From contig JBAZTA010000003.1 in assembly GCA_041662125.1 (NCBI GenBank), forward strand, positions 7,992 to 71,991: a DNA stretch of 64,000 bases, written 5' to 3'. The translations under genes and the position numbers were made by a program. The number at the start of each line of letters is the position of its first letter. Within the stretch, counting starts at the first letter, position 1. This DNA is from Candidatus Omnitrophota bacterium (lineage in GTDB: Bacteria > Omnitrophota > Gorgyraeia > Gygaellales > Profunditerraquicolaceae). Below are positions 4,073 through 61,244 of the stretch, one piece after another. The notes beneath the pieces are model-generated. The model saw nothing but the letters and a program-made list of their open reading frames with translations. It did no database searches and was not told the origin of the DNA.

Positions 4073-4083
4073 TTGTTGGTCGT

Positions 4084-4896
4084 ATGAAGAATAAAGATCA
4101 CATGAAACTCATAATTCTGGCAGTATTAACGCTGGTAACTTATATTCCGACATTTATCTGGATGGTTCAGCGATGGAGCGCTGCTGATACTTACTATAGC
4201 CATGGATTCCTTATTCCTTTGATAAGTTGTTTCATTGTTTGGCGTAAGAGGGAGATTTTATGTAAATTACTTAAAGAATCTTCTGGTTGGGGGTGGTTGT
4301 TTTTTATTGTTGGGGTAGTTATCCATAGTATCAGTGCTCTTTGGCAAGTGTCTTTTTCTTCCGGGTTTTCTTTAATTCTTGTTTTGATCGGTTTAATCCT
4401 GTTGTTTTATGGAAAAGATTTTTTAAAGCATCTAATGTTTCCTGTGTTGTTTTTAGTTTTTATGATCCCCTTGCCCATGGTTGCAATTGCGAATTTAAGC
4501 TTTCGCTTAAAGATCTTCGCTTCGCAGATAGCAACGATAATTGTTAATAAGCTGGGCATTTTGGCAATACGGGAGGGAAGTGTCATAAAAACAGCGCACT
4601 CTTATGTTGTGGTGGAAGATCCGTGTTCCGGAATACGTTCACTGATCGCTTTGATCGCTTTGGGTGTTTTGATGGCATATCTAAGCAATGTGTCTCGCAC
4701 AAAAAAGATGATCCTGTTTTTATCTTCAATCCCAATCGCATTATGCGCAAACATAATAAGAATAACTGTTTTAGCGTTAATCAGTGAAATCTACGGTTCG
4801 GCGGTTGCCACAGGAAAGGTCCATGATGTTATGGGAGTCCTGGTTTTTGTTTTTGCTTTTGCTGGGCTTGCGATGGTCAGAAAGATATTAGAATAA
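4084..4896 (+). CDS. Exosortase (EpsH/Xrt family transpeptidase)
   Basis: Polytopic membrane protein with the hallmark YSHGFLIPLI motif and the active-site-like DPCSGIRSL (Cys-x-G-x-R-S-L). It is followed by an EpsI-like gene and PEP-CTERM substrates. Confidence 0.78.
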   Translation: MKNKDHMKLIILAVLTLVTYIPTFIWMVQRWSAADTYYSHGFLIPLISCFIVWRKREILCKLLKESSGWGWLFFIVGVVIHSISALWQVSFSSGFSLILVLIGLILLFYGKDFLKHLMFPVLFLVFMIPLPMVAIANLSFRLKIFASQIATIIVNKLGILAIREGSVIKTAHSYVVVEDPCSGIRSLIALIALGVLMAYLSNVSRTKKMILFLSSIPIALCANIIRITVLALISEIYGSAVATGKVHDVMGVLVFVFAFAGLAMVRKILE

Positions 4897-4897
4897 G

Positions 4898-5518
4898 ATG
4901 AATAATAAAATTTATTCAATTGTTGTGGTAATCTTAGTTTTTGCGGCATTAATTAGTTATGCCGCTTATTTTCCCACCAAACTTGCTTCTCAGACAGAAA
5001 GGATGATCTCTGATTTTCCTTTAGTAATCGGCGAGTGGACTGGTGAGGATATGGTTTTAAGTGACAGGGTGTATGAGTTATTAGAAACCAGGAATTTGAT
5101 CATGCGTAACTACCATAATAAAAAGGGCGAAATCATCAATCTTTATATCGTTTATTCTCAAGATAACCGAAAGGTCAGTCATCCTCCGGAAATTTGTTTG
5201 CAAGGAGATGGCGCAGCTATTGTTGATAAATCTACTCTTCAAGTAACAGATTCGATAGTAGCAAATAAATTAGTTATAGAGAAAGAGTTATCCCGGGAAT
5301 TAGGCGTTTATTGGTATAAAGCGGGAAAAGTGTATTCAAATAATTATATATTACAGCAATTGAGGTCATCTTTAGGGGGGATGTTTGGAAAGCGGGTATC
5401 TTCCGCGTTAATCAGGGTATTAACTTCGGTTGAAGGTGGAAAAGATGATCTGGCGTTAACTAGAATTAAGGAGTTTTGTAGGCTTATTGAGCCTTTGTTG
5501 CCGCAGTATGTGCCGTAA
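4898..5518 (+). CDS. Exosortase-associated EpsI-family protein
   Basis: About 200 aa with one N-terminal TM helix, immediately downstream of the exosortase with a 1-nt gap. This is the typical EpsH-EpsI arrangement. Confidence 0.55.
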   Translation: MNNKIYSIVVVILVFAALISYAAYFPTKLASQTERMISDFPLVIGEWTGEDMVLSDRVYELLETRNLIMRNYHNKKGEIINLYIVYSQDNRKVSHPPEICLQGDGAAIVDKSTLQVTDSIVANKLVIEKELSRELGVYWYKAGKVYSNNYILQQLRSSLGGMFGKRVSSALIRVLTSVEGGKDDLALTRIKEFCRLIEPLLPQYVP

Positions 5519-5528
5519 TTTGTAATTT

Positions 5529-5582
5529 AAGACCCGGTCTTATCTGTAACTAAGTGTTACATGCCAAGACCGGGTCTTTTTA
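5529..5582 (+). terminator. Hairpin plus T-run terminator; also copy A of the REP-like palindromic repeat family
   Basis: AAGACCCGGTCTT ... AAGACCGGGTCTT inverted repeat with about a 24-nt loop, followed by TTTTT, just after the EpsI stop. Confidence 0.6.
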
Positions 5583-5621
5583 TGTTGTTGCTACCCGTAT
5601 AATTTGTTTATAATAGTAAAG

Positions 5622-5650
5622 AGTAGTTATCTTATTTATTTATAACTACT
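5622..5650. promoter_or_regulatory. Perfect 9-bp inverted repeat AGTAGTTAT-N11-ATAACTACT (candidate enhancer/UAS)
   Basis: Lies about 180 bp upstream of a sigma-54-like -24/-12 element, in a 300-bp AT-rich leader. Confidence 0.3.
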
Positions 5651-5818
5651 TATGATAATATCACCTGAAAACGCTTTCAATGATGTTGAAATTAGTGAAC
5701 AACCGCATTCTATAGTATTTCCCCTTTTCTAATTAATTATTTTTTAACAAGAAAAACAATAGAAGTATCTGCAGTATATATACTTAAAAACTTAATAAAA
5801 TTATTTATAAATATAGGG

Positions 5819-5835
5819 TTGGCATGGATAATGCT
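5819..5835 (+). promoter_or_regulatory. Candidate sigma-54 (-24/-12) promoter TTGGCATGGATAATGCT
   Basis: GG and GC dinucleotides spaced exactly as in TGGCAC-N5-TTGC. Sits about 45 bp upstream of the sugar-transferase start. rpoN and a sigma-54 activator are encoded nearby. Confidence 0.45.
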
Positions 5836-5880
5836 CTTAAGAAGATGATGGATTCATAGAAAATGAATTAAAAGGAAAAG

Positions 5881-6753
5881 ATGGGTAAAAAGACTATAAA
5901 AAAGAGAAAGTTTGAACGAACAATGAAAAGAATCAGTGTTGGCATATTATTAGTAATGTTGCTTTTTGTTTTAGAGCCTGTTTTGAGGGGTAAAGATATC
6001 TTTGCTATCACTTATTTGGGAAATCCGATTTCCTATGAACAAAACAATCAAATGAGCGTAGAATTTACTCAAACTCCGATTAAGAAGACTTTTGCCCCGG
6101 AACCGAGCTCATTTTTACTCATTTTGGGCGGTATTGGCGGGATCATTATTAGTTTTGTCCGCAGAAGCTTTGATAAGATTAAAAGAGGTTTGGACCTTAT
6201 TTTGGCTATTATTGGTTTGATCATTGGTTCTCCATTACTTATTCTAGCTGCAATCTTTATTAAGATCGATTCCCGAGGGCCTATTGTATATCAACAGAAC
6301 AGAGTTGGCAGGCGCGGGAAGATCTTTAAGATATATAAGCTTAGGACAATGAGGTTGGATGCAGAAAAAGGGACCGGTGCTGTTTGGGCAAAAAGAAACG
6401 ATCCTCGTATTACCGAAATTGGCAAGTTCTTAAGAAAAACGAGAATTGATGAAATTCCTCAATTAATTAATGTTTTAAAGGGTGAAATGAGTATTGTTGG
6501 CCCTCGTCCGGAAAGGCCTGAAATGGTTGTGGATTTTAAGAAGCTTATTTGTGACTATGAGAAAAGGCTTATTGTTAAACCTGGTATAACCGGACTTTCC
6601 CAAATATATAATAGGTACGATGAAACAATAGCTGATGTTAGGAAAAAGGTTAAGTATGATCTTTTATATATAAGGAAAATGTGCTTGTGGGTAGAGATGC
6701 GGATTTTAGCTCAGACTGTCTTTGTTGTTTTTACAGGAAAAGGCGCTAATTAG
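5881..6753 (+). CDS. Bacterial sugar transferase (polyprenyl glycosylphosphotransferase, EpsB/WbaP-C family) with an N-terminal signal peptide and an internal PEP-CTERM-like segment
   Basis: The C-terminal 200 aa carry sugar-transferase motifs (KRGLDLILAIIGL..., DEIPQLINVLKGEMSIVGPRPE). Residues ~72-96 read APEPSSFLLILGGIGGIIISFVRRS, which is a PEP-CTERM signature: PEP, a TM stretch, then Arg-Arg. Confidence 0.8.
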   Translation: MGKKTIKKRKFERTMKRISVGILLVMLLFVLEPVLRGKDIFAITYLGNPISYEQNNQMSVEFTQTPIKKTFAPEPSSFLLILGGIGGIIISFVRRSFDKIKRGLDLILAIIGLIIGSPLLILAAIFIKIDSRGPIVYQQNRVGRRGKIFKIYKLRTMRLDAEKGTGAVWAKRNDPRITEIGKFLRKTRIDEIPQLINVLKGEMSIVGPRPERPEMVVDFKKLICDYEKRLIVKPGITGLSQIYNRYDETIADVRKKVKYDLLYIRKMCLWVEMRILAQTVFVVFTGKGAN

Positions 6754-6768
6754 AAAGGGAATGAAAAT

Positions 6769-7293
6769 ATGAAGAAATTATTAATAGCGTTATTGTTAGT
6801 TGTAGGAGTATTTGCTCTTTCCAAGTCTGCGTTCGCAATACCGTACGCTGATGTCATTAACTACAATTCTCTTATGACAATTGGAATGAGCCACACGTAT
6901 AATTTTAATCTCAATACTGATACTTTGCTCGATGGGGATATTAATGCTGAAGACCAAATTAATTCAGCTGCACTGGCAATTAGCTTTTTTGATGATGAGA
7001 CTGATACGTGGAGACCATCTACTTGGGAACTATCATTGATTGATGTCGATAGTGACCTATACTTATGGGATACTGGTACTTTTCAGGCTAATGTTTACAA
7101 TAGAGTGGTCAATGATCATCAGTTGGAAGTTACCGTTACTAGCTTGTGGGGTGATTTTAATTTAGGTAATGCTTCGTTATCTGGTGATTATACGAATTTG
7201 CCTACTACAGCTCCGGTTCCTGAACCGGCTTCATTGTCTCTTTTAGGTATTGGTTTGTTGGGTTTATTGGGTGGTTTACGAAGGATTAACTAG
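6769..7293 (+). CDS. PEP-CTERM sorting-domain secreted protein
   Basis: Signal peptide. C-terminus reads TTAPVPEPASLSLLGIGLLGLLGGLRRIN followed by stop. Confidence 0.88.
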   Translation: MKKLLIALLLVVGVFALSKSAFAIPYADVINYNSLMTIGMSHTYNFNLNTDTLLDGDINAEDQINSAALAISFFDDETDTWRPSTWELSLIDVDSDLYLWDTGTFQANVYNRVVNDHQLEVTVTSLWGDFNLGNASLSGDYTNLPTTAPVPEPASLSLLGIGLLGLLGGLRRIN

Positions 7294-7356
7294 TTAAGGA
7301 AGATTCTTAGAGCTTAACTAATTGAAAATAGAGAAAAAGAGAGGGGGTGAGAAATA

Positions 7357-7986
7357 GTGAAAAAAGTTATTTTTTTCTTAATTGCGGTTTCGTTTGTTTT
7401 AGGGCTAAACGCAAGTGCTTTTGCTCTTCCGTTTAGTTCTTTAGGTTGGGTTGATCCTAATTATAGCAATTCATGGGATCCTACTACGTCAACTGGTACT
7501 GCAAGGTACCATTTTGATTGGAGTGATCCAGATGTTAGCGTCACATCATTAGAGTTACAATTCGAAGGAGACATTTTTAATTTAAGTCTTCTCGATGCGA
7601 GTGATTTTAATGTAGTAGCGCCTCCATCATGGACTACGACAATGTGGATAGATAATGGAGTGTCTCATTGGGGAATTTCGAGTGGATTAGGAGTTGATTT
7701 TACTCAGTCACCAATAGTAGTTGATGTGAACTATACACTTCTTTCTTCTAGTCGTTATTCATTTGGAGATAGTACTTATGCTGGAGATCTTAATCAATGG
7801 GGATGGGATGAAGCTCAGGGGGCCAATAATGCTTGGTCGCAGAAATATGATTTAGTGGGTACTAGTATTTCGAGCGGCAGGTTGTATACAAGCCCTGGTT
7901 CAACAGCTCCAGTTCCAGAGCCAGCTACAATGTCGTTATTAGGGATAGGTATTTTGGGATTATTTGGTTTACGAAGAAAGTCCTAG
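7357..7986 (+). CDS. PEP-CTERM sorting-domain secreted protein
   Basis: Signal peptide. C-terminus reads STAPVPEPATMSLLGIGILGLFGLRRKS followed by stop. Confidence 0.88.
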   Translation: MKKVIFFLIAVSFVLGLNASAFALPFSSLGWVDPNYSNSWDPTTSTGTARYHFDWSDPDVSVTSLELQFEGDIFNLSLLDASDFNVVAPPSWTTTMWIDNGVSHWGISSGLGVDFTQSPIVVDVNYTLLSSSRYSFGDSTYAGDLNQWGWDEAQGANNAWSQKYDLVGTSISSGRLYTSPGSTAPVPEPATMSLLGIGILGLFGLRRKS

Positions 7987-8053
7987 GCTTTCTTTCGGTG
8001 AAATGATTCTAAAATGCCACCCTCAGAAGTGCATTTTCGAAACTGCAAATAAG

Positions 8054-8090
8054 AGGGGGCAAATCAATATGGTTTGCCCCTTTTTTTTTC
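8054..8090 (+). terminator. Rho-independent terminator
   Basis: GGGGGCAAA-loop-TTTGCCCC followed by a T9 run. Confidence 0.65.
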
Positions 8091-8128
8091 GAAATATGTA
8101 ATATGCTGTGAATTATAAGGTTGCAAGC

Positions 8129-8157
8129 TTGACAAATAAACTTGGTAATGGTATACT
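8129..8157 (+). promoter_or_regulatory. Sigma-70-like promoter TTGACA-N17-TATACT
   Basis: Consensus -35, a 17-nt spacer and a near-consensus -10, about 50 bp upstream of the 8206 gene. Confidence 0.45.
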
Positions 8158-8205
8158 TAAACAAGTTGTTTCAAATTATCAACATTATGATCAATAAGAG
8201 GTTTA

Positions 8206-9129
8206 ATGAATCCTCAGACCACTAAATTCCCTTCACTAAAGAAAGTATACAATAATACTTTTAGCTTCTTAAAACACAATAAGTTACTATTTATTCCCTT
8301 TATTATCTTTTCAATCCTTGAACTGCTCGCGTTGATTTTTATCTACATTTCTCCCCGTATGCCGTTTGTTATTGTTTTAGGACCGCCTATCAAAGCATTT
8401 TTTGGAGCGCAATTCTTGCATTATCCCATGAATTTTGTTTTAATTCCAAAATTAGCGGGTATCTCGCGAAGTGTTTTGTCGATATTAGTGGGGGCACTTT
8501 TAAGCGCGGTGGCAGTGCAAGTCATTTTTAATCTTTATGAGAAGAAAACGGTAAGGATGATCAATGTCTTTAAAGCGTTACTGAAGAAATATGCTTCTTT
8601 GTTTCTTGTCGTATTGGTCATAACTATAGTATTTCATGGAGCTTTACAATTACCCGCATTAGGTTTAAAGTCATATTTTCTCACCGGCCACAAAACACTC
8701 TTATTTTTAAAACCAGCCATGTGGTTTGGTTCGATTTTAGCAGGTATTAGTTTTATAATTTCAATCTTTGTTCAGGGTTGTTTTGCTTACGTGATCCCGG
8801 TTTTGGTGATTGAAAAAGTAAATCCCTTCAAAGCGCTCTTGAGATCATGCGGTTTATTCTTTAAGTCTTTCTTTCCAACCATTATGTTAGTCGGTATCCC
8901 CATGTTGGCGTATGTGCCAATTATTATTTTGCAGTATAATACGCTTTTCATCATAAATAAGTTTTACCCGGAATTAGTGTTGTTTGTTGCTTTGCTAAAT
9001 GTGTTGGTTACTTCTTTGTTTGTCGATGTATTGATCACTGTTTCTACAACTTTGTTTTACCTTACCTATAAAGATAACTTAACACAAGGTAAGAAAACGT
9101 TGAATATAGCTCAAGAGACGCAAAAATGA
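8206..9129 (+). CDS. Polytopic integral membrane protein, function unknown
   Basis: Roughly 8 predicted hydrophobic helices. No recognisable catalytic motif. Confidence 0.5.
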   Translation: MNPQTTKFPSLKKVYNNTFSFLKHNKLLFIPFIIFSILELLALIFIYISPRMPFVIVLGPPIKAFFGAQFLHYPMNFVLIPKLAGISRSVLSILVGALLSAVAVQVIFNLYEKKTVRMINVFKALLKKYASLFLVVLVITIVFHGALQLPALGLKSYFLTGHKTLLFLKPAMWFGSILAGISFIISIFVQGCFAYVIPVLVIEKVNPFKALLRSCGLFFKSFFPTIMLVGIPMLAYVPIIILQYNTLFIINKFYPELVLFVALLNVLVTSLFVDVLITVSTTLFYLTYKDNLTQGKKTLNIAQETQK

Positions 9130-9974
9130 AAAAAACATTGTTTTCTAAAATTGTTTTTATTTTTATGGTTGTCTTCCTGGTTGGATGTTCATCGAATGAT
9201 CAATATTCTGTTGAGAGAAAATACTGGAAGATCAAAAAGCTGGCGGAGAAAGTTTTTAAAAATCCGGTAGCAACTCCTCCAAACGAATTAGAGCGTGTTG
9301 TCAGCCGTTCTGAAGAATTCATTAAGGAATATGCGGCCAATCCCTTATCAATAGAAGCCTCTTTTAATATTGCTCGTTTATATATTGTAAAAGAAGAATA
9401 TGAATCGGCCCGTAAGCAATTGCAGAAGATACTTCAGGCAAATAAGAAGTCGCCGGTCATTTGTTCTGAAGCTCTGTTTTTAATCGGTAACGCCTATCAG
9501 TTGCAGGATAAATGGAGCTTGGCTTTAGAGCAGTATAAGAAGATCACCCGGGAATATCCGACTACGGTCAAGGCCCTTGATATACCTATATTTATTGCCC
9601 AGAATTATAAGGTTAAAAATCAACCTGAAAAAATGATCGTGGCGTATCAGGATGCAATAGGGCAATATAGGACGCTCATTGAAACGTATCCAAATTCTTT
9701 GTTAGCATTTAATGCCTATTTGTTAGTAGCTCAATGTCATATAGCTTTAAAAGATTGGCAAATGGCCGTTAAAACTTTTGAAACGGTCATTGAAAAGTTT
9801 AACGGTAAGGCAAAAATGGACGGGGCGATGTTTGAGATGGCGATTATATATGCCAAGCAATTAAAAGATACAGGGAAAGCTAAAGAAATACTTGATAGAT
9901 TGAACAAAGAGTATCCAAAGAGCAGGTATAGTAAAGTATCGTTGCTTTTAATTAAGGAGTTGGATAAACAATGA
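9126..9974 (+). CDS. TPR-repeat lipoprotein
   Basis: Lipobox FLVGCSS. Several TPR-like helical repeats. Overlaps its neighbours by 4 nt, so it is co-translated with the two-component system. Confidence 0.6.
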   Translation: MKKTLFSKIVFIFMVVFLVGCSSNDQYSVERKYWKIKKLAEKVFKNPVATPPNELERVVSRSEEFIKEYAANPLSIEASFNIARLYIVKEEYESARKQLQKILQANKKSPVICSEALFLIGNAYQLQDKWSLALEQYKKITREYPTTVKALDIPIFIAQNYKVKNQPEKMIVAYQDAIGQYRTLIETYPNSLLAFNAYLLVAQCHIALKDWQMAVKTFETVIEKFNGKAKMDGAMFEMAIIYAKQLKDTGKAKEILDRLNKEYPKSRYSKVSLLLIKELDKQ

Positions 9975-11179
9975 CAGAACTTCGGATATTAGAGAATAAA
10001 GATTCCGGCGGGATACTTAAGCATTTCTTAAGCAGGACGCTTAAAGAGATAATGTCAGTGGTGCACGCGGAACGCGGGTCTTTGTTTTTGTTTGATTGCG
10101 AGCATAAGGAACTTGTTTTAAACACTTTTTATGTGCCTGAAAATACTGCTTTAAAAGAACTTCGCCAGAGGCTAGGGGAAGGTATTGCCGGGAAAGTTGC
10201 TGATATTAAAATCCCTATTTTAGTAAAAGATATAAAATGCGATTCTCGTTTTAAGCAGAATGGGTTCAGCCATTATCAGACGAATTCATTTATGTCGATA
10301 CCAATTTTTACCTCTGAGCGGCTCTTGGGATTGATCAATTTAGCGGATAAATCAACGGGTGGGCATTTTTCAGAAGAAGACCTGAATTTAGCGGTGACGA
10401 TCTCAAAATACGCCTGCCTTGCCCTTGAAAGCTTGAATAGTTATACCGGATTGAAACAGGAAAAAGAGGCTTTAGACAAGCAGAAAGCGTTATTAGAAAA
10501 GTATGCTTCAGTAGGAAAGCTTGCCGCCGGTATCGTTCATCAGATCAATAATCCTCTTGACGGGGTTATCCGATACGCCAATATTCTGCTCGATCAGATG
10601 GAAGATAATTCCGCGACGAGGGAGTATCTTTTAGAAATTACCAAAGGGCTCAACCGTATTGCTAAGATCACTCGCTCGCTTTTGGAGTTTTCACGCCAGA
10701 TCAATTTAAGTACCTCACATCATAAACACTATGTTGATATCCATACTTTGATAGAGGAATCTTTAGATGTCTTTGGAGAAGTTATTGACGGTACTATTAA
10801 GATCGAGAAGAATTTTGTTGCTGATCTGCCGAAAATCCTGGATTTTGGGTTGTCCCATGTGATAATTAATATAATTGAAAACGCCTTGGATGTTATGCCT
10901 AAAGGAGGCGTTTTATCGATAGAAACCGCGCTTAAAGAGTCCTGGGTTGCTATTACGATCATGGATACAGGTTGCGGTATCCCTGAAGAGGTCTTAAAAC
11001 GGATCTTTGAGCCGTTTTTTACGACCAAAAGTATGGATAAAGGCACGGGGTTAGGCTTGGCGATCAGCCAGGAGATCATTAATAAGTACGGCGGGTCAAT
11101 TAAAGTGCAGAGCGTTGTTAAAAAGGGGAGTTCTTTTACCATTTTAATTCCGAAAACATTCTTAAAAAATGCTGAATAA
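9971..11179 (+). CDS. Cytoplasmic sensor histidine kinase (GAF-HisKA-HATPase_c)
   Basis: N-terminal GAF domain. H-box IVHQINNPLDG. N, G1 and G2 boxes (DTGCGIPEE, GTGLGLAI). Confidence 0.85.
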   Translation: MTELRILENKDSGGILKHFLSRTLKEIMSVVHAERGSLFLFDCEHKELVLNTFYVPENTALKELRQRLGEGIAGKVADIKIPILVKDIKCDSRFKQNGFSHYQTNSFMSIPIFTSERLLGLINLADKSTGGHFSEEDLNLAVTISKYACLALESLNSYTGLKQEKEALDKQKALLEKYASVGKLAAGIVHQINNPLDGVIRYANILLDQMEDNSATREYLLEITKGLNRIAKITRSLLEFSRQINLSTSHHKHYVDIHTLIEESLDVFGEVIDGTIKIEKNFVADLPKILDFGLSHVIINIIENALDVMPKGGVLSIETALKESWVAITIMDTGCGIPEEVLKRIFEPFFTTKSMDKGTGLGLAISQEIINKYGGSIKVQSVVKKGSSFTILIPKTFLKNAE

Positions 11180-13569: not shown

Positions 13570-13593
13570 ATTGTAAGTATAGTTTAGCTGTTA

Positions 13594-13727
13594 AAGACCC
13601 GGTCTTGGCTGTAATTTAAAAATACCAGTTAAGACCGGGTCTTTTTGCGTATAAGACCGGGACTTGAATTGTAGTATTTTATCATTGATAAGTCCCGGTC
13701 TTGAAATGTGATTCAGACCGGGTCTTA
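13594..13727. repeat. REP-like palindromic repeat cluster, copy B (three hairpins)
   Basis: AAGACCCGGTCTT...AAGACCGGGTCTT, AAGACCGGGACTT...AAGTCCCGGTCTT, CAGACCGGGTCTTAG. Sits between convergent genes and abuts the rpoN stop. Confidence 0.7.
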
Positions 13728-15148: not shown

Positions 15149-15282
15149 CAAGACCCGGTCTTGGCTGTAAATAAGCATACCTGTCAGTGTCATTGCGAGG
15201 AGCCGAAGGCGACGAAGCAATCTTTTTAAAGATTGCTTCGCCCCTACGGGGCTCGCAATGACACGAGCAAGACCGGGTCTTA
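15149..15282. repeat. REP-like repeat copy C with a nested 74-nt compound hairpin
   Basis: Outer arms are CAAGACCCGGTCTT / AAGACCGGGTCTT. The inner unit GTCATTGCGAG...CTCGCAATGAC encloses GAAGCAATCTTtttaAAGATTGCTTC. Confidence 0.65.
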
Positions 15283-15333: not shown

Positions 15334-16068
15334 GTGCATAAAGAAACCATAGGACATAGTGAATTTACCTTTAAGTTTGTTGAAGAACCTGTTTTAATGG
15401 ATCAGGTCTACCGCCTGCGTTTTCAGGTATATTGCGAAGAATGCAAGTTTATTAGAGAAGAAGAATACCCTGATAACCGCGAACAGGATAAATATGACCA
15501 GTACGCGCTTCATTTTGTCGTGGAAGACAACTTTGAAGTAATCGGCACTATGCGGCTGATCCTTGATTCTTCTGTAGGCTTTCCGATCGAAGAGCGCTGT
15601 GGTGCTGACTTAAAATTCGATAAAAAAAGTGTAGCCCGCAATAAGATAGCGGAGATCTCCCGCCTTGTTATCAGTAAAGATTATCGGCGTAGAAAAGACG
15701 ATGGGTTGTATTATACTCCTGAATTTGATGAGAAATCTCTCCTGGGGAATTCGAATAATCCTTTTCGCCGGATCAGGACTATGACCTTTGGGATGTATCG
15801 CGAACTATATCATGAAAGCAAACGTCGGGGCCTGACGCATTGGTACGCGCTCATGGAGAAATCATTGTGGAAATTATTGGACTTGAATGGGTTTACTTTT
15901 AAGCCTATCGGCCAAGAAATTGATTATTATGGTGTGGTGACCCCGTATATTGGAGTTATTGAAGAAATCGAGCGGGAATTTTATAAGAAGTATCCGCAGT
16001 TCTTTACTAAGTTTTTTCTTGATGGTTTAGAAACCCAATTTCATCCGGAATTCCTTTCTTCTGCATAA
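15334..16068 (+). CDS. GNAT-fold N-acyl amino acid synthase-like acyltransferase (FeeM / autoinducer-synthase-like; exosortase-system-associated type)
   Basis: About 240 aa. Sequence pattern FTFKFVEEP...YRLRFQVYCEEC...GTMRLILD...EISRLVISKDYRR is typical of long-chain N-acyl amino acid synthases. It sits directly upstream of an acyl-activating enzyme. Confidence 0.5.
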   Translation: MHKETIGHSEFTFKFVEEPVLMDQVYRLRFQVYCEECKFIREEEYPDNREQDKYDQYALHFVVEDNFEVIGTMRLILDSSVGFPIEERCGADLKFDKKSVARNKIAEISRLVISKDYRRRKDDGLYYTPEFDEKSLLGNSNNPFRRIRTMTFGMYRELYHESKRRGLTHWYALMEKSLWKLLDLNGFTFKPIGQEIDYYGVVTPYIGVIEEIEREFYKKYPQFFTKFFLDGLETQFHPEFLSSA

Positions 16069-16073
16069 AAAAT

Positions 16074-18767
16074 ATGGCTCAAAACCGCCTCAGTATATTT
16101 GAGGAATTTGCTCAAGTAGCCAAAACGTATCCTTCCAAAACAGCTGTTTTCTTTAAAAATAATAATGATTATTCTGAAGTATCGTACCTTGAGATCTATC
16201 AAAAAGCGCTAAAGCTAGGTAATTTCCTGATCCATTGGGGTGTGCAGAAATCCGATAGGATCGCCATTTTAATTGGTAACCAGCTTGAGTGGCCGGTATC
16301 TTTTTTTGCGGTACAGTTTGCGGGTGCGGTTGCGGTGCCTATTGATGTTCGCCTGCCAGCTCCTGACATTACCCAGTTGGTAATACATTCTTCTTCGAAA
16401 ATAATTCTCTGCGCAGAGAAAGTCTACGCTCAAAATACCGCGTTCCTGGACGGTTTAAAAAGTGTCAAAATACTGCTCATTGATTCGGTTTCTTTTCAGG
16501 AACAGTTTGTCAATTATTCTCTCAAGATGCAGGAAGCGCCGGTTTTCAGGGCTCTGGATACTGTTGCAGCTATGTTTTATACCTCCGGTACAACAGCCCT
16601 TCCTAAAGCAGTCATGCTCTCGCAGGTTAATCTTTTAGCCAATGTAGAATCGATACGAAAAATAAAAATAGTGACTCATCAGGATTGTTTAATTTCATTT
16701 CTGCCGCTTCATCATACCTATTCATGCATGGTCACCTGTTTGGTGCCGCTTCTTTTAGGCGCGCAGATCAGTTATCCGGCAAGTTTAAATTCTGATGATC
16801 TGCTGAATTGTATGCAAGAGACAAAAGTGAGTATTTTAGTCGGGGTGCCGCAATTCTTCTCAATTTTCCATAAAGCTATAAAACAAAAGTTTAAGAAGAT
16901 CCCTTTGCTTCTCAGGGCCGGAATAAATGTTTTGATCTGGATATTGTGGGTTTTTCGTAAATTAACAGGTGTTAATTTGAATAAATACCTGCTGCACAAA
17001 ATGCATTCCGTGTTCGGGAATAAATTGCGTTTTATGACTACAGGCGGTGCTAAGATTGAAACAACGATAATAGTTGATTTTTTCAAATGGGGATTTACGA
17101 TCTTAGAAGGGTACGGGTTGACGGAAACGTCTCCCGTGGTTACGTTTAATCCTCCTCTTAAGCCAAAAATCGGCACTGTCGGTAAGCCAATACCCGGAGT
17201 ACAGGTAAAGATATTAAATCCCGATGAGCAGGGGGTAGGTAAAGTTGCTATTCGTGGTGAGAATGTCATGTTGGGGTATTATCAGTTGCCTCAAGAGAAT
17301 GCGCGGGTGCTTAAAGATGGATGGTTTTTGACAGAAGATCTCGGGTATTTTGATAAAAGCGGCTACCTTTGTATTAAGGGCAGGAAAGATGAAATTATTG
17401 TCTTAAGCTCAGGAAAGAAGATAAACCCGGAAGAGATCGAACGGGAGTACCTTTTAAGCCCCTATATTAAAGAAATATGTGTTTTTGTTGCTTCGCGGGT
17501 AGGTTTTATTGGTGAGGCAAAGCAGTTGATGGCAGTAATTGTCCCTCATGAAGAATATTTCACCGCCCGGGGAGTACTCAATATTGAAGAAAAAATACGC
17601 TGGGAATTAGATAATTTATCCCATCAGATAAGTCATTATAAGCGTGTTACCGGTATTATTATCAGTAAAGAAAAGCTTCCGCGCACCGCATTAGGCAAGA
17701 TCATGCGCCATAAAATAGAAGAAAAATATGTTCAAGAGGGAGGTGGGGTTTTTCAGAATGGGAAGGGGGGGAGACTCAGTGAAGATGTGAGCTCATTCTC
17801 TTCGGAAATTTCCAAGAAAATACTTGAACAGATATCAAAGCGGCTTAATCGAAATGTTAAGTTGGATGATCATTTAGAGTTGGATCTAGGGCTTGATTCT
17901 TTGGGCAGGATCGAATTGCTTTTGGAGCTTTTCAAGTTTCTGAATATCCAGGCTTCAGAGTCAATACAGTCAGAATTCTTTTTCGCTCATACTATAAGAG
18001 ATTTACTGCTTAAACTGGAGCCTTTTATACCGCAGGATGTCAAATATGGCAATCAGGATGAGTTTTTATGGTCAGAAACTCTTCATGAGCGGCCATCTTC
18101 GAAAACTTTGAATATGGTAAGGTTTAAGCCGTTTTTTATTGATAAAATTGCGGCGTTACTTGTTATTACTATTGTGCGGTATGTCTTACGGGTATTTTTT
18201 CTTCTTTCAATTAAAGGCCGGGGAAATCTTCCCAAAAACGGGCCGTATATAGTTTTCGCGAATCATTCCAGTTATTTGGATGGTTTTGTTATAGCCGCAC
18301 TATTGCCGTTTCATGTGCTGCTTAAAACATATTTTGTAGGGTTAAAACGGATTTTCTTGAAGCCTTTTATCAGGGATTCGATTAAATTAGCGAGGTTAAT
18401 TCCTATAGATGTGACTTTGGACCTGGTTGAGGCAATGCGCATATGCGCCTATTTATTGGCTCAAAAGAAAATAGTCAGCTTTTTCCCTGAGGGCCAGCGT
18501 AACCCGGAAGGAGGAGTGATCAGGTTTAAGAAAGGTATAGGGATCTTAGCTAAGGAGCTCAATATTCCGCTGGTACCAGTTTATATTGATGGTACATTTC
18601 AAGCCTGGCCGAGGCACGCGAAATTGCCGCGTTTTCACGCGATAAAAGTTACAATTGGGAAACCCCTGAGTTATGCTGAATTAGTAAGTCAAAAGGTACT
18701 TAAAAGCGATGATTATGACGCGGTTGCCGAAGCTTTGCGGCAGGAGTTGCTTGCGTTGAAGAAATAG
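16074..18767 (+). CDS. Tri-domain fusion: AMP-dependent acyl-CoA/acyl-ACP ligase + acyl-carrier (phosphopantetheine) domain + PlsC-type lysophospholipid acyltransferase
   Basis: AMP-binding motifs (YTSGTTALPKAVMLSQ, TEDLGYFDKSGYLCIKGRKDE). ACP Ser motif LDLGLDSLGRIELL at ~17890. PlsC HX4D motif NHSSYLDG at ~18257 and FPEGQRN. Confidence 0.8.
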   Translation: MAQNRLSIFEEFAQVAKTYPSKTAVFFKNNNDYSEVSYLEIYQKALKLGNFLIHWGVQKSDRIAILIGNQLEWPVSFFAVQFAGAVAVPIDVRLPAPDITQLVIHSSSKIILCAEKVYAQNTAFLDGLKSVKILLIDSVSFQEQFVNYSLKMQEAPVFRALDTVAAMFYTSGTTALPKAVMLSQVNLLANVESIRKIKIVTHQDCLISFLPLHHTYSCMVTCLVPLLLGAQISYPASLNSDDLLNCMQETKVSILVGVPQFFSIFHKAIKQKFKKIPLLLRAGINVLIWILWVFRKLTGVNLNKYLLHKMHSVFGNKLRFMTTGGAKIETTIIVDFFKWGFTILEGYGLTETSPVVTFNPPLKPKIGTVGKPIPGVQVKILNPDEQGVGKVAIRGENVMLGYYQLPQENARVLKDGWFLTEDLGYFDKSGYLCIKGRKDEIIVLSSGKKINPEEIEREYLLSPYIKEICVFVASRVGFIGEAKQLMAVIVPHEEYFTARGVLNIEEKIRWELDNLSHQISHYKRVTGIIISKEKLPRTALGKIMRHKIEEKYVQEGGGVFQNGKGGRLSEDVSSFSSEISKKILEQISKRLNRNVKLDDHLELDLGLDSLGRIELLLELFKFLNIQASESIQSEFFFAHTIRDLLLKLEPFIPQDVKYGNQDEFLWSETLHERPSSKTLNMVRFKPFFIDKIAALLVITIVRYVLRVFFLLSIKGRGNLPKNGPYIVFANHSSYLDGFVIAALLPFHVLLKTYFVGLKRIFLKPFIRDSIKLARLIPIDVTLDLVEAMRICAYLLAQKKIVSFFPEGQRNPEGGVIRFKKGIGILAKELNIPLVPVYIDGTFQAWPRHAKLPRFHAIKVTIGKPLSYAELVSQKVLKSDDYDAVAEALRQELLALKK

Positions 18768-18775
18768 ATAGTTTT

Positions 18776-18845
18776 AAGACCCGGTCTTGGCTGTAATTAA
18801 AAACTACCTGTTAAGACCGGGTCTTGTTAGTAAGACCGGGACTTA
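18776..18845. repeat. REP-like repeat copy D
   Basis: AAGACCCGGTCTTGGCTGTAATTAAAAACTACCTGTTAAGACCGGGTCTT followed by TAAGACCGGGACTT. Confidence 0.7.
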
Positions 18846-18857
18846 ACAAAGAAGCTC

Positions 18858-19700
18858 ATGCAAAAATTATCTGACTTAACTAAAGATATATTAATAGGGT
18901 TATATATAAACTCAAGGAGTTCTCTTGCTGACATAGCAGCAATTTATGGGGTTTCTCGGACAGCCATTTACAAAAAACTTAAAGAATACGGCATTAAATT
19001 GCGTTCGAAATCAGAGGCAAGGATTGAAGCGCAAAAACAAGACAAATTGCCACAAAAGTTCTTTGATATAAATGATGATTTCTTTTCGAAATGGGCACCA
19101 GAGATGGCATATGTCTTAGGTTTGATTATAACGGATGGATGTGTGTCTATGGCTGGTACAGTTTCTTTATGTATTAATGATAAAGAATTACTTGAAAAAG
19201 TTAAGAAAGTTATGGGGTCTGAGCATAAAATTGAGCTGTCGAAACACCAAAAAGGCTTATATTATTTTCGCTTTTCAAGAGAAAAATTAGTCAAGGATTT
19301 GGAGAAATTATGTGTTGTGCCTAGAAAAAGTCTTATTGTTAAATTTCCTGATGTGCCAAAAGAACACTTACCTGATTTTATTAGAGGAGTGTTTGATGGT
19401 GATGGCAGCGTATTTTTTGATAAACGACGGCCAAAATTTCCTTTAAGATCGAAGTTTGTGAGCAGTTCAGAGGTTTTTATAGTAGAATTACAAGTAGCAC
19501 TTGAAGGCTTAGGTATGCCTAAACGGACGATTTATAAACAAAAAACAAAGAATGGTTGGAGTTATATGATTATTTATGATCATAAAAATAGCATAGATTT
19601 ATTTAATTTACTATATAGTAATGTTAAAAATTGTCTATATTTAGAGCGAAAACATCAATGTTTCTTGGAGGGGTTAGATATGTCTAAAAGGATTTTATAA
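18858..19700 (+). CDS. Free-standing double-motif LAGLIDADG homing-endonuclease-like protein with N-terminal HTH
   Basis: Two LAGLIDADG motifs (AYVLGLIITDGCVS, FIRGVFDGDGSVFF). N-terminal sigma-70 region-4-like HTH (LADIAAIYGVSRTAIYKKLKEYGI). The gene is markedly AT-rich compared with its neighbours. Confidence 0.75.
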   Translation: MQKLSDLTKDILIGLYINSRSSLADIAAIYGVSRTAIYKKLKEYGIKLRSKSEARIEAQKQDKLPQKFFDINDDFFSKWAPEMAYVLGLIITDGCVSMAGTVSLCINDKELLEKVKKVMGSEHKIELSKHQKGLYYFRFSREKLVKDLEKLCVVPRKSLIVKFPDVPKEHLPDFIRGVFDGDGSVFFDKRRPKFPLRSKFVSSSEVFIVELQVALEGLGMPKRTIYKQKTKNGWSYMIIYDHKNSIDLFNLLYSNVKNCLYLERKHQCFLEGLDMSKRIL

Positions 19701-19907
19701 ATGGATAAAGAACTTGAAGATTGGTATATGTTACACAAATTTCATTTTTATGCCGGTAATTATGAAACTAAAGATTTAGCTGCTTTTTTAGGTATTAACT
19801 CGCGGACAATCCAGAGATGGATTAAAGAGACGACCAAGCCAACCAAAGACCAATTAGCCAAAATCAAAACGTATTTGGACCAAAAGAAGCAAAAAGATTC
19901 ATTATAA
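19701..19907 (+). CDS. Small HTH protein (68 aa)
   Basis: LAAFLGINSRTIQRWIKE helix-turn-helix. Its start abuts the stop of the LAGLIDADG gene. Confidence 0.4.
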   Translation: MDKELEDWYMLHKFHFYAGNYETKDLAAFLGINSRTIQRWIKETTKPTKDQLAKIKTYLDQKKQKDSL

Positions 19908-20153
19908 ACAAGGCTTTATTTTGTTTTTCTATATGTCGCACTAGTGCCTATAATATATCTTATGTTAACTTGAGAATATTGCTGAACTGTGTTCAACATG
20001 TTGTTGAATAAAGGTTTACAATCATTGTTATTTCCTTGTGGATAAGCCATGTTGGACTTACTTCTGTTTACTTAGATTTATGTGGTTTTCTTATGATTAA
20101 CATTGGTAAGCAGATTATACGGTGTTTTGTTCTTAGGTTGCTTTTGTAGGTTA

Positions 20154-21302
20154 TTATGCTATTTTTCTGGAAAGAGTAATTACTGCGGGAATAATGCTGC
20201 CTTCGCCAAGTTTGGTATTGATTTTATCCATGGCTTTGATCAATGCCTCCCTTCTTTTTTGTTCGGTAAATAGAGGGGGGTAATCTGGGGTATGTAATGA
20301 GCTGCAGGTTATCCCTAATGCCCGTACAAGGGCCGGTCTTGGGGCTATTTTGACCATTATTCTTAAAGTTCGGGCATATATTTCATACCCATCATTGGTT
20401 GCTTGTTCCTGGGTTCTTTGTGCCATAAGATTGCCGATTTCCGGGCCGTTTAACCATAGATGTGTGGTTTGGCTGGTGAGGTTTTTTTGCCGTAATCTTT
20501 CCGCTACCATTTCAGATAAAAGCCGTAACCAGGATTTTATAAACCGGGGGGTTTTTGATGCTCTTGGTAAGGTGTATGAATGGCCTATTGATTGCGGGGC
20601 CTCTTCTTTGATCTCTTGGCTGAAATGTTCAGTTGCATGTAATGCGGCATAGAGATTAAGCCCGTTTTTTCCTGAAAAACGTTGCAAGAAATCAGGTGTT
20701 TTTTCGTATAGATCAAGGCAGGTTTGAATGCCTAAACTATTAAAGGATGTCTGTGATTTCTTACCGACACCGCAGAGCTTTTGAACTGGGGTTTGAGCCA
20801 GGGCCTGAGTCAGGTTTTTTTCGGTTAATATGGCTATACCGTTTGGTTTCTTAAGTTTTGAGGCTAATTTAGCTAAAATGCAATTCTTGGCTATGCCGAT
20901 CGATGCGGTAATGTGAAATCTGTCTTCTATTTGTTTTTGTATGGTTTTGGCTAAAATAAACGGCTGGGGTTCTTTGTCTATGTCCATGCGAAATTCGTCA
21001 ATCGATGCGTAGGATACTTCAAATCCGTAGGTTTTTACCATTTCAAAGATCTGTTCCGATGTCCAGATATATTTACTTTGTTCCGCGGGGACAAATTCTA
21101 GGTTTGGGCATAATTGATACGCGTCTTTTGAAGCCATGCCAGAGCTGATACCGTACGCTTTGGCTTCATAGCTTGCAGCGCAAACAACGGTGTACATTTT
21201 ATTGTTTCTTGAGCCGACAATTAATGGTTTGCCTTTTAGCCGGGGATTGATCGCTTGTTCTATGGATGCGAAAAACGCGTCCATGTCAATATGGAGAATC
21301 AT
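20154..21302 (-). CDS. dinB: Y-family translesion DNA polymerase (DinB/UmuC-like)
   Basis: MILHIDMDAFFASIEQ and SIDEFRMD catalytic acidic motifs. Little-finger region. Last gene of a lexA operon. Confidence 0.85.
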   Translation of the reverse strand: MILHIDMDAFFASIEQAINPRLKGKPLIVGSRNNKMYTVVCAASYEAKAYGISSGMASKDAYQLCPNLEFVPAEQSKYIWTSEQIFEMVKTYGFEVSYASIDEFRMDIDKEPQPFILAKTIQKQIEDRFHITASIGIAKNCILAKLASKLKKPNGIAILTEKNLTQALAQTPVQKLCGVGKKSQTSFNSLGIQTCLDLYEKTPDFLQRFSGKNGLNLYAALHATEHFSQEIKEEAPQSIGHSYTLPRASKTPRFIKSWLRLLSEMVAERLRQKNLTSQTTHLWLNGPEIGNLMAQRTQEQATNDGYEIYARTLRIMVKIAPRPALVRALGITCSSLHTPDYPPLFTEQKRREALIKAMDKINTKLGEGSIIPAVITLSRKIA

Positions 21303-21311
21303 GGGAAGAAG

Positions 21312-21626
21312 TTATGCGATTATTCTATCAAGTTGCCAGCTGAAACTGATGTTCGTAAAAGATATTTGGTAAAGATCAATGCCGGTGTTAACCGAAAAGT
21401 AAGTGATAAGCTCTTGGCCGCGGCGCTCCTGCCAGGTATAGGAAATGTTCTTGATCTTGTATTTCTTTTGCTTCCAGGTGAAGATGCGTGGAAGAATCTT
21501 CCCGTTTTTAAACCAGGCAAGAACATCGATTCTTTCATCGAGTAATCCGCTGGTTTCTTCCGGGTTGTTCTCTTGCTGCGGCATATTTCTATCCCAACGC
21601 GCTTTTGGATTAAAAGTCTGTTTCAT
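21312..21626 (-). CDS. Hypothetical 104-aa protein within the SOS operon (possible UmuD'-substitute / YolD-like accessory)
   Basis: Located between lexA and the polymerase, with short intergenic gaps. No motif recognised. Confidence 0.4.
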   Translation of the reverse strand: MKQTFNPKARWDRNMPQQENNPEETSGLLDERIDVLAWFKNGKILPRIFTWKQKKYKIKNISYTWQERRGQELITYFSVNTGIDLYQISFTNISFSWQLDRIIA

Positions 21627-21666
21627 AGGTATGGATTAGGGACGGTTCTCGTAGGTATCGTTTAAA

Positions 21667-22260
21667 TTAATACTTCCTGATTATCGTAAGCAGCTTACCG
21701 ATAATGCTGAATTCCGCGCGGATAGGTTGATAGTTTTGATTCGCCGGCTCAAGAAACGCGGTATTGCTTTTGGTTTTAAGCCGTTTCAGGGTGACTTCAT
21801 TATTATCTAAGAGCGCGGCAATGATATCGTTGTTATCAGCCACAGGCTGTTTCTTGATGACCGCGATATCCCCGGAAATGATACCTGCATCAACCATGCT
21901 GTCGCCTTTAACCCTTACGGCAAAGACGTCATTGAAGCTTAAGCGCCCAAGGAATAAGTCGTAGGTATCCACATAACCTTCAATGTCCTCATAGGCAAAG
22001 CTTGGCTTGCCGGCGGCAATGGTGCTTATGATCGGGATCTTGTTGAACGTATGCAATAATTCGATAGCCCGGGATTTATTACTGCCGCGTTTTACATAGC
22101 CTTTTTTCACCAGGGCGTTTAGATAATCCCTGACTGTGCCTGTTGAGGAAAATCCTAAGCCTTTGGCGATTTCGCGGATCGTGGGCGGAATGTTTTCGCG
22201 CACCTTTTCGCAAATAAACTCCAGTACTTTCTTTTGTTTCTCTGTTAATTCTCGAACCAT
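21667..22260 (-). CDS. lexA: LexA repressor
   Basis: N-terminal winged HTH. Ala-Gly cleavage region. S24 peptidase Ser (VKGDSM) and Lys (AVIKKQ). Confidence 0.85.
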   Translation of the reverse strand: MVRELTEKQKKVLEFICEKVRENIPPTIREIAKGLGFSSTGTVRDYLNALVKKGYVKRGSNKSRAIELLHTFNKIPIISTIAAGKPSFAYEDIEGYVDTYDLFLGRLSFNDVFAVRVKGDSMVDAGIISGDIAVIKKQPVADNNDIIAALLDNNEVTLKRLKTKSNTAFLEPANQNYQPIRAEFSIIGKLLTIIRKY

Positions 22261-47784: not shown

Positions 47785-47910
47785 TCTGATCATCTCCTTT
47801 CGGTTTGGATTTTAGTCATAAATTTAATTTTTCAGCTTTTTAATATAACATTAATTTCTGGCTGTGTCAATCATATCTTATGAGGAGGAGTAAGTACAGC
47901 TTTTTTATTT

Positions 47911-48117
47911 AAGACCGGGACTTGCGGCAGAAAGCCGCACACCCGGCATTCCGATAAGCCGGGTGTAAGTTAATCAATCTCTCAAGTCCCGGTCTTATTG
48001 GATAGGCCGGGTGTAAGTGACAATCGTTCAAGACCCGGTCTTGAGTTGTTACCTTAGTTACAGATAAGACCGGGTCTTAGCTTACACCCCGCGCTTATTG
48101 GAATTGCGCGGGTGTGT
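47911..48117. repeat. REP-like repeat cluster, copy E (several hairpins)
   Basis: Core arms AAGACCGGGACTT...AAGTCCCGGTCTT and AAGACCCGGTCTT...AAGACCGGGTCTT. Additional hairpins ACACCCGGC...GCCGGGTGT and ACACCCGCGC...GCGCGGGTGT. One loop is the reverse complement of the copy A loop. Confidence 0.7.
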
Positions 48118-60620: not shown

Positions 60621-61244
60621 TTATTGGATTAATCTTATCCGGTTAAGCGGCCAGTATATGATAAAAGCTTTTCCGATGACATTTTTTTCGGGGACAAATC
60701 CCCAATACCTGCTGTCTTGAGATGATTGCGAATTATCACCGAGTACATAATAACAGTTCTTTGGCACGACGATCTTCTGCCCTTCTTGTCCGTAGTCACC
60801 GCGGTTATAGTAATATTTTTTGCTAAAGACCGGGTCTAACAGGGGCCTGTCGTTTATATAAATGGTCCCATCTTTTATTTCGATACTTTCGCCTTCTGTG
60901 GCGATGAGCCGTTTGATAAAGTCTTTTTTCGGGTTTTCAGGATAAATAAAAACAATCACATCGCCCCGCTGCGGTTTTCTTACTGCCGGCAATCGGATAT
61001 CGGCTAAAGGCAGTTTAGCGCCGTATAAGAATTTGTTTACCAAAATAATATCCCCTTCGACCAAGGTCAGCCGCATGGATCCCGTCGGTATCTTAAAAGC
61101 TTGCACCACAAAAATACGGATGATCATCGCCAGAATAAAGGCAGTTATGATCGATTCAGACCATTCTTTGATGACTAATTTGATCTTTTGTTTCCGTGGT
61201 TCTTTTACATTGCCGGTACGTGAAGTTGGTTTGTCTATGCTCAT
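60621..61244 (-). CDS. lepB: Signal peptidase I
   Basis: Ser box (GSM), Lys box (RGDVIVF), and GDNSQSSQDSRYWGFV. The likely start is Met MSIDKPTS at 61244, overlapping the lepA stop by 4 nt; the ORF track extends to 61370. Confidence 0.85.
   Translation of the reverse strand: MSIDKPTSRTGNVKEPRKQKIKLVIKEWSESIITAFILAMIIRIFVVQAFKIPTGSMRLTLVEGDIILVNKFLYGAKLPLADIRLPAVRKPQRGDVIVFIYPENPKKDFIKRLIATEGESIEIKDGTIYINDRPLLDPVFSKKYYYNRGDYGQEGQKIVVPKNCYYVLGDNSQSSQDSRYWGFVPEKNVIGKAFIIYWPLNRIRLIQ

Follow-up and report, generated by a model that had tools for sequence, protein, structure and literature searches.

A free-standing LAGLIDADG endonuclease cassette inside the XerC arm of dif in Omnitrophota: a putative dif-targeting homing element

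Why does a free-standing gene for a LAGLIDADG protein, far richer in AT than its neighbours, lie beside the lexA operon of a bacterial chromosome, and what ties it to that place? The gene (referred to as LAGL) was found in a 64,000-nucleotide stretch of the genome of a Candidatus Omnitrophota bacterium (contig JBAZTA010000003.1, positions 7,992 to 71,991), which is called the window throughout and in which all coordinates are given. An original prediction, made from the sequence alone, had placed LAGL in a selfish or regulatory island spanning 18858-20153. We found that the foreign segment extends from 18765 to 19946 (forward strand), that it ends inside the XerC arm of the chromosomal dif site, and that related cassettes lie beside dif in dozens of genomes of uncultivated bacteria. 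The segment is, at a probability of roughly 0.6, a free-standing homing-endonuclease element that has the terminus dif as its home and would spread by cleaving it; together with its relatives, it apparently forms an undescribed family of dif-targeting mobile elements.

LAGL (18858-19700, forward strand) encodes a protein of 280 amino acids, which was analyzed using Pfam, PHROG, AlphaFold2, and Foldseek. The protein consists of an N-terminal helix-turn-helix (HTH; residues 9-43), a linker helix (residues 49-66), and two LAGLIDADG domains (residues 81-279). Two of its stretches matched the Pfam family LAGLIDADG_3 (E = 3e-14), and phrog_4645, annotated as 'endonuclease' in PHROG, was matched over the full length (E = 1.4e-47). 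The first LAGLIDADG motif (AYVLGLIITDGC, 19107-19142, forward strand; LGLIITD93G) carries the catalytic Asp93 (codon 19134-19136), and the second one (FIRGVFDGDGSV, 19377-19412, forward strand; VFDGD182G) carries the catalytic Asp182 (codon 19401-19403). In alignments of 20 and 55 homologs, D180, G181, D182, and G183 of the second motif were all invariant, and D93 and D182, the acidic residues that end each motif, were retained in all 55 proteins; their loss had been named by the original prediction as an outcome that would speak against it. The AlphaFold2 model (predicted local distance difference test score [pLDDT] of 90.5) displayed the expected tandem alpha-beta-beta-alpha-beta-beta-alpha order of elements, and its best fold matches in the PDB, as found with Foldseek, were I-Tsp061I, PI-PfuI, I-DmoI, bI3 maturase, and I-AniI, all of them LAGLIDADG enzymes, with WhiA (3hyj) ranked lower. 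Judged by its motifs and modeled fold, LAGL is a monomeric double-LAGLIDADG homing endonuclease, presumably capable of DNA cleavage, as had been suggested for this position.

The homology search returned 560 homologs of LAGL, one of which, from a metagenome-assembled genome of Candidatus Omnitrophota (P0001), was 100% identical. The closest annotated relatives were classical intron-encoded endonucleases that interrupt two phage genes, one for DNA polymerase and one for recombination. At the LAGL locus itself, there was no Rfam match to an intron and no split host gene, and LAGL is free-standing, as originally stated. The predicted N-terminal HTH is likewise real, though its assignment to sigma-70 region 4 is weak, since this segment gave only sub-threshold matches (YlxM/UPF0122, HTH_7). 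The most conserved part of the protein, ahead of the catalytic core, was the linker helix (19002-19055; RSKSEARIEAQKQxKLPQ; RSKSEARIEAQKQ), which was near-invariant in the 55 homologs and modeled with lower confidence (pLDDT 69-77). This helix could be an element that contacts DNA or a partner protein.

The site at which the cassette ends was recognized as dif (19943-19970, forward strand), composed of 28 nucleotides (11 + 6 + 11) that form the XerC arm AGTGCCTATAA, the central region TATATC, and the XerD arm TTATGTTAACT. It is identical to Escherichia coli dif (GGTGCGCATAATGTATATTATGTTAAAT) at 22 of 28 positions, it is the sole such site within the window, and over 140 loci conserve its core. 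A XerD arm that is well conserved beside a XerC arm whose outer part varies is the pattern described in the literature (PMC2731167). The sequence logos agreed with it, the XerD arm being better conserved than the XerC arm, and the arms of empty alleles (ACGTCCTATAA) matched those of deltaproteobacterial dif sites (PMC2731167). Gene orientation flips at dif, with 16 forward and two reverse genes to its left and five forward and 43 reverse genes to its right, and the GC skew within the window declines at this point from approximately +0.16 to approximately 0. The convergence of genes on a single dif site, which was also observed in a Bacteroidales relative (L033), is the signature of a replication terminus. 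By these sequence features, 19943-19970 is the chromosome's dif at its replication terminus, where XerC and XerD would be expected to recombine; a motif scan found no xer gene within the window.

To define the borders of the island, the window was compared by blastn with the reverse complement of its closest relative (L183), the flanks of which were 86 to 91% identical at the nucleotide level and the DinB protein 87% identical. The populations of the window and of this relative occur together in the samples JGI 3300009146, 3300009081, and 3300009009. This relative carries an empty allele, in which the stop codon of the AMP-binding/acyltransferase gene is followed by 310 nucleotides, a DUF134 gene, 130 nucleotides, CTCAACTTCCT joined directly to ATAATATATCTTATGTTAAC, and then dinB (the dif region reads ..CCCTAATCTCAACTTCCTATAATATATCTTATGTTAACTTG.. 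/ ..GCCCTAATCTCAACTTCCTATAATATATCTTATGTTAACTTGCC..). Homology stops at 18764 and restarts at 19947, inside the XerC arm, between CCT and ATAAT. The island takes the place of about 785 nucleotides of the empty allele, namely intergenic DNA, the DUF134 gene, the 130-nucleotide spacer, and the outer XerC arm, and the outer four nucleotides of the XerC arm in the window (19943-19946) are element-derived and differ among loci. The search for an empty site that the original prediction had called for was thus successful, and it corrected the proposed extent, as 19947-20153 proved to be native terminus DNA. Of the two palindromes counted as parts of the island, GCACTAGTGC (19938-19947) is a mere junction of an element-borne 9-mer with the substitute XerC arm and is not palindromic at other loci, and TTCAACATGTTGTTGAA (19992-20008) lies in the tail, which holds dif and the native block on its XerD side. 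The REP-like (repetitive extragenic palindromic) copy reported just before the island was confirmed, and three palindromes of the type TAAGACCGGGTCTT are located where the island begins on its left (18775-18845). Its position had been described as lying between an exopolysaccharide region and an SOS operon; the lexA/polymerase operon is indeed there, and the exopolysaccharide label found no support in the genes at 15334-18767. What counts is the location in the XerC arm of the terminus dif, and the placement between those two regions is incidental.

The composition of the segment also departs from that of its surroundings, as had been noticed before. Its GC content is 32%, compared with 42% for the host, the GC profile runs at 0.29-0.36 over 18800-20150 and at 0.40-0.45 in the flanks, and LAGL has the lowest GC content at third codon positions (0.256) of the 39 long open reading frames (ORFs) of the window (mean 0.429, standard deviation 0.047). 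The cassette was AT-rich relative to the host in every genome examined, including a sharp island of 37% GC in a genome of 60% GC, and a host-like composition of the same genes at this place in relatives, which would have told against acquisition, was never encountered. The foreign composition, together with the absence from the closest relative, indicates a horizontally acquired and probably selfish cassette, in agreement with the original prediction. No transposase or recombinase gene was found in the cassette (ORF list, Pfam), and a search for terminal inverted repeats and target-site duplications gave only weak, unconvincing matches, with a 13/19 similarity of the ends in one subtype. We also observed an inverted copy of the dif core (16/18, TTAACTAAAGATATATTA) at 18876-18893, within codons 7-12 of LAGL. 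Weaker versions occupy the corresponding offset in L004, L007, L009, and the more remote L026. The inverted copy is perhaps a remnant of a half-site, or a mere by-product of the conserved peptide LTKDxL.

Recurrence at dif was assessed by a protein-based scan with one genome per species, in which dif was not used and which returned 34 loci. In 24 Omnitrophota loci, a dif-like site, its XerC arm turned toward the nuclease gene, lay 50 to 600 bp 3' of that gene. The same layout was found on a complete Omnitrophota chromosome (L026; homolog 41% identical) and in five Bacteroidota loci (homologs 34-39% identical and bearing an extra N-terminal CxxC...CxxC zinc ribbon), which brings the total to about 30 loci in the same orientation. 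In CP070837.1, dif is located at about 894.6 kb of 1.553 Mb. None of 22 viral contigs with relatives 25 to 37% identical to LAGL had a dif-like site, and such contigs held only relatives of that distance, close family members being absent there. As a side observation, two Bacteroidales loci (L033, 6997-7069; L034, 1782-1853) have a second, inverted dif-like site (TATAATGATATTATGTTAAA when reverse-complemented), situated about 50 nucleotides from the main dif, between it and the nuclease gene.

In addition, metagenomes were scanned with the dif core, which gave 120 loci, of which 96 distinct ones with at least 450 nucleotides of upstream sequence were classified. A DUF134 gene followed by about 130 nucleotides and a canonical dif (..CAACTTCCT continued by ATAAT..) was present in 41 of the 96, other contexts without the cassette in 46, the nuclease in six, and HTH68 (see below) with no nuclease detected in three. 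The occupied share of the sampled dif sites is about 6%, most dif sites of the clade being without the module, and related genomes show three allelic states side by side: empty; HTH68 with the 9-mer; and nuclease, HTH68, and 9-mer together. Occupied and empty alleles with both flanks in common could be paired twice (L141/L019 with L090/L052, and L014/L015 with L086). The L141/L019/L020/L053 subtype and L014/L015 retain the host outer XerC arm (AACGTCCT / AACGTCTT) where the element begins on the left, and homology of these pairs to the empty allele restarts at ATAATATATC (ATAAT). In some relatives, the element thus splits the XerC arm between its outer seven nucleotides and the inner ATAA, and the right end of the element brings a substitute outer arm, variable among loci, by which a 28-bp dif-like site is kept. 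Presence or absence of the insertion at one defined site, with the junction within the XerC arm, was accordingly seen on comparing the empty alleles L183, L086, L090, and L052 with the occupied ones.

The DUF134 gene (PF02001), which encodes an HTH protein, deserves a separate comment. It reads toward dif, ends 100 to 130 nucleotides 5' of the XerC arm, and has a host-like GC content; it was found in the reverse complement of L183 (about 440-740) as well as in L043, L048, L060, and others, and is absent from the window. We rejected it as a part of the mobile cassette because its GC content is host-like or higher and 41 empty loci have it beside dif. It is possibly a dif-associated factor specific to the lineage. 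Derivation of the LAGL N-terminal HTH from DUF134, or its paralogy to HTH68, was also rejected, as no significant similarity was found.

The second gene of the cassette, predicted as a 68-residue HTH gene downstream of LAGL, was confirmed as an ORF at 19701-19907 (forward strand) and is referred to as HTH68. Its product gave sub-threshold matches to HTH_17 and HTH_3 and no Pfam match to DUF3653/XafT-type domains; 142 homologs were found, and the gene was present in 20 of the 24 close loci. In three homolog clusters (P0081, P0095, P0102; up to 14 contigs), HTH68 is fused to the C-terminus of the nuclease in one protein of about 348 residues, and these natural fusions argue for a joint function of both proteins. 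An alignment of 20 related loci revealed that HTH68 is followed by a near-invariant non-coding stretch, ATGTCGCAC-N7-TATAATATATCTTATGTTAAC. The 9-mer ATGTCGCAC (with a following T, 19933-19942, forward strand) lies seven nucleotides outside the inner XerC arm, was nearly invariant in 26 HTH68-type loci, was found at none of 87 empty dif loci, and was kept in alleles with HTH68 but without the nuclease. It is a candidate binding site of HTH68.

Taken together, these data suggest the following course of events. The nuclease would cut an unoccupied dif across the junction of the outer and inner XerC arm, approximately between GCTCAACTTCCT and ATAATATATCTT, and an occupied chromosome arriving by gene transfer would serve as the template for repair of the break. 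The homology arms would be provided by the DUF134 gene on the left and by the dif core with the conserved 120-nucleotide XerD-side block on the right. The altered outer arm would render occupied alleles immune to cutting while preserving a dif-like site. HTH68 might bind ATGTCGCAC and either aid the nuclease in its DNA search or offset the alteration of the XerC arm, and such a role would account for alleles in which HTH68 and the 9-mer have survived the nuclease. Signs of such decay were found: the nuclease gene has multiple stops in L029, internal deletions in L023 and L039, and frameshifts in L092, and alleles in which HTH68 and the 9-mer occur without any remnant of the nuclease are common (L107, L147, L188-L192), HTH68 being of host-like GC content in them.

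Several observations, however, weigh against a homing element with dif as its target. The copy in the window has no recognizable host outer arm at its left end and replaces DUF134, so that the insertion is not clean, and no dif could be recognized beside the Planctomycetota relatives L025, L028, and L031. In loci with DUF134, the nuclease ORF lies exactly between DUF134 and HTH68, and the nuclease might have entered an HTH68 module that was already there, and not dif itself. Furthermore, LAGL identity follows host DinB identity over 28 genome pairs, the nucleotide identity of the cassette (70-74%) is only about four points higher than that of the flanks (66-70%), and no recent transfer between the sampled genomes was detected, there being no near-identical copies in divergent hosts. 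A long vertical residence of the cassette is therefore possible. LAGL was also more conserved than RpoN, DinB, and LexA in the same genome pairs, which would fit a role beneficial to the host as well. The identity pattern fits either transfer among relatives only, as homology-dependent homing predicts, or long residence under selection.

An alternative reading takes the cassette as a domesticated accessory module of dif. HTH68 with ATGTCGCAC, possibly joined by LAGL as a terminus-specific DNA-binding protein or nuclease, could be a lineage variant of the machinery for dimer resolution or terminus handling, inherited mainly vertically. Conservation of LAGL above the neighbouring housekeeping genes, whose identity it tracks, agrees with such a role, as do the invariance of the 9-mer next to a relaxed outer XerC arm, the persistence of HTH68 (there of host-like GC content) with the 9-mer in the absence of the nuclease, and the synteny of the neighbourhood in many genomes. 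However, the module varies in presence among close relatives, including the nearest relative of the window, and is missing from most dif sites of the clade; it includes pseudogenised nuclease copies, is AT-rich in hosts of every GC content, and keeps the catalytic residues, unlike WhiA. We consider domestication unlikely on this balance.

An equally doubtful idea is that the cassette enters and leaves through host XerC/XerD, by recombination of dif with a dif-like site on the element, as do integrative mobile elements that exploit Xer (IMEXs); HTH68 would then direct or activate Xer in the manner of XafT of TLCphi, and the nuclease would be cargo or another aid to spread. The right junction does have the form of an Xer product (an element-type XerC arm, a common inner arm and centre, and a host XerD arm), and the cassette has no integrase. 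Inverted, XerD-arm-like sequences of eight to nine nucleotides occur at the left end (GTTAACAT in the L141 type, TTAACATAA in L029), in addition to the inverted core at 18876-18893, and a small HTH protein beside dif is described as an IMEX trait in two reports (PMC6744903, PMC9226527). On the other side, each locus has one full dif, the left junction lacking another complete dif-like site, and after the left host arm the sequence diverges three nucleotides short of the Xer strand-exchange position. Nor did HTH68 match XafT-type domains in Pfam; the cassette has two genes only, none for replication, transfer, or packaging; the inverted 18-mer tracks the peptide LTKDxL encoded by the nuclease gene; and conservation of the nuclease catalytic residues would be left unexplained.

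It is also conceivable, though again improbable, that the element rewires dif: the substitute arm would be weak for XerC, and HTH68 bound to ATGTCGCAC would become a required dimer-resolution factor, or else the LAGL-HTH68 pair would act as a terminus-specific nuclease at dif. Such dependence of the host on the element would account for the survival of HTH68 and the 9-mer beyond the decay of the nuclease. Finally, a generic island acquired by chance in a plastic terminus region, with no functional link to dif, is very improbable: the left border in the window is untidy and bears REP-like repeats, and terminus regions accumulate foreign DNA, but the gene-then-dif order and orientation recur in about 30 loci of at least two phyla, including homologs only 34 to 41% identical, the junction is nucleotide-precise within the XerC arm, and phage relatives have no dif-like site nearby.

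The nearest counterparts of the cassette are the phage intron enzymes with the same full-length architecture of an HTH and a double LAGLIDADG (phrog_4645; gp054 of Brevibacillus phage Jenst, in the DNA polymerase gene; the 'intron-encoded endonuclease' of Staphylococcus Twortvirinae), which are about 30% identical to LAGL. In both cases, a selfish nuclease gene is tied to a specific conserved target. However, the phage enzymes reside in introns that split essential protein genes, whereas the cassette is free-standing in a bacterial chromosome at a non-coding recombination site and comes with an additional HTH gene and, in place of splicing, a replacement half-site. With the solved enzymes I-Tsp061I, I-DmoI, PI-PfuI, I-AniI, and I-SmaMI, LAGL shares the fold (Foldseek probability 1.0, template modeling score to target 0.6-0.67) and the two LAGLIDADG helices with their conserved acidic residues, but it is only 14 to 22% identical to them, and they lack both the N-terminal HTH and the linker helix. 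The free-standing homing endonucleases of T-even phages (Seg, Mob) are intergenic and cleave genomes without them at a conserved sequence nearby; their immunity derives from differences in the target sequence, and flanking DNA is co-converted. These are GIY-YIG or HNH enzymes of phages, whereas the cassette encodes a LAGLIDADG protein in bacterial chromosomes and its presumed target is a recombination site. WhiA likewise combines a double-LAGLIDADG scaffold with an HTH, but it is a domesticated transcription factor that has lost the catalytic residues and is universal and single-copy in its lineages, whereas LAGL keeps both aspartates, is patchy in its presence, and has decayed in some genomes.

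The known homing endonucleases reside in introns, inteins, and intergenic regions of phages and take advantage there of conserved genes for proteins or rRNA. Of all non-coding sites on bacterial chromosomes, dif is, to our knowledge, the most conserved. A full-text search of the literature on LAGLIDADG proteins or homing endonucleases in connection with dif, Xer, dimer resolution, or the terminus retrieved no description of such an element. Known exploiters of dif are IMEX phages, insertion sequences of the IS1202 family (PMC10132070), and pdif modules. IMEXs (CTXphi, TLCphi with XafT, the gonococcal island) resemble the cassette in lying at dif without an integrase, with a functional-looking dif kept on one side and a small HTH protein beside it; the cassette differs from them in lacking a second dif-like site as well as phage or plasmid functions, in encoding a nuclease, and in a left junction off the Xer exchange point. 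Insertion sequences of the IS1202 family (ISAjo2) target dif or pdif in one orientation, at or a few base pairs from the XerC side (PMC10132070); they are 1.5-kb elements with a DDE transposase and terminal inverted repeats, whereas the cassette has no transposase and no convincing inverted repeats. In Acinetobacter-type pdif modules, cargo lies between two inverted Xer sites; in the cassette, the inverted core copy is found inside the nuclease ORF and is weaker elsewhere.

Should homing to dif be correct, the family would represent a fourth, mechanistically distinct class of dif-exploiting elements, in which a selfish element occupies an essential site without splicing by means of a replacement half-site. 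It would also supply natural meganucleases whose target at dif, about 22 bp long, could be predicted, and a practical marker of dif and the terminus in uncultivated phyla, e.g., Omnitrophota and Bacteroidota, and would make it testable whether the change of the XerC arm affects dimer resolution and whether HTH68 compensates for it. If, instead, the element rewires dif or encodes a nuclease acting there, it would be a new capture of an essential non-coding site and a new Xer accessory system.

The DNA following dif is part of the host terminus and not of the island. Its conserved XerD-side block (19971-20100) includes ..GAATATTG.., GTTTAC, CTTGTGGATAAG (20034-20045), and ACTTACTTCTGTTTACTT, keeps the same spacing in empty and occupied loci, and in the window is 86% identical to that of the empty relative. 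Within it, 120 nucleotides conserved in more than 40 loci contain GCATATTGG, GTTAC, CCTGTGGATAA (a DnaA-box-like 9-mer, 20037-20045), and ACTTAnnCTTACC, and these conserved elements of the terminus region are probably bound by proteins. No consensus RNA structure was found in the block. An oriC, considered on account of the perfect DnaA box TTATCCACA (20037-20045), was rejected because genes converge here rather than diverge; DnaA-box-like matches in the window (15) were as frequent as expected by chance (15.5). A small-RNA promoter was likewise rejected, since the TATAAT 3' of HTH68 consists of the inner XerC arm and the start of the dif central region, and the lack of any Rfam match and of a consensus structure in the conserved block downstream also weighs against a small RNA. 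A sigma-54 promoter was dismissed for its wrong spacing, and an anti-phage defence system because PADLOC hits did not rise above noise.

The XerD side of dif is abutted by an operon of lexA, a DUF6504-like gene, and a Y-family polymerase gene (20154-22260, reverse strand), as in at least eight related genomes; dnaE2 does not follow the polymerase gene. To the left, between rpoN and the terminus, lie genes for a FeeM-like N-acyl amino acid synthase (GNAT) and an 897-residue AMP-binding/carrier/acyltransferase protein (15334-18767, forward strand). In several relatives, rpoN directly adjoins DUF134 and dif, so this gene pair looks like another local insertion. The REP-like family TAAGACCGGGTCTT has 31 matches in the window (0.4 expected), clustered in intergenic DNA at 5528-5579, 13593-13727, 15149-15282, 18775-18845, 47910-48079, and 60825-60839; it is absent from all other loci fetched and is thus genome-specific. 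A broader region of low GC content (0.35-0.38) lies further upstream, at 4001-10000.

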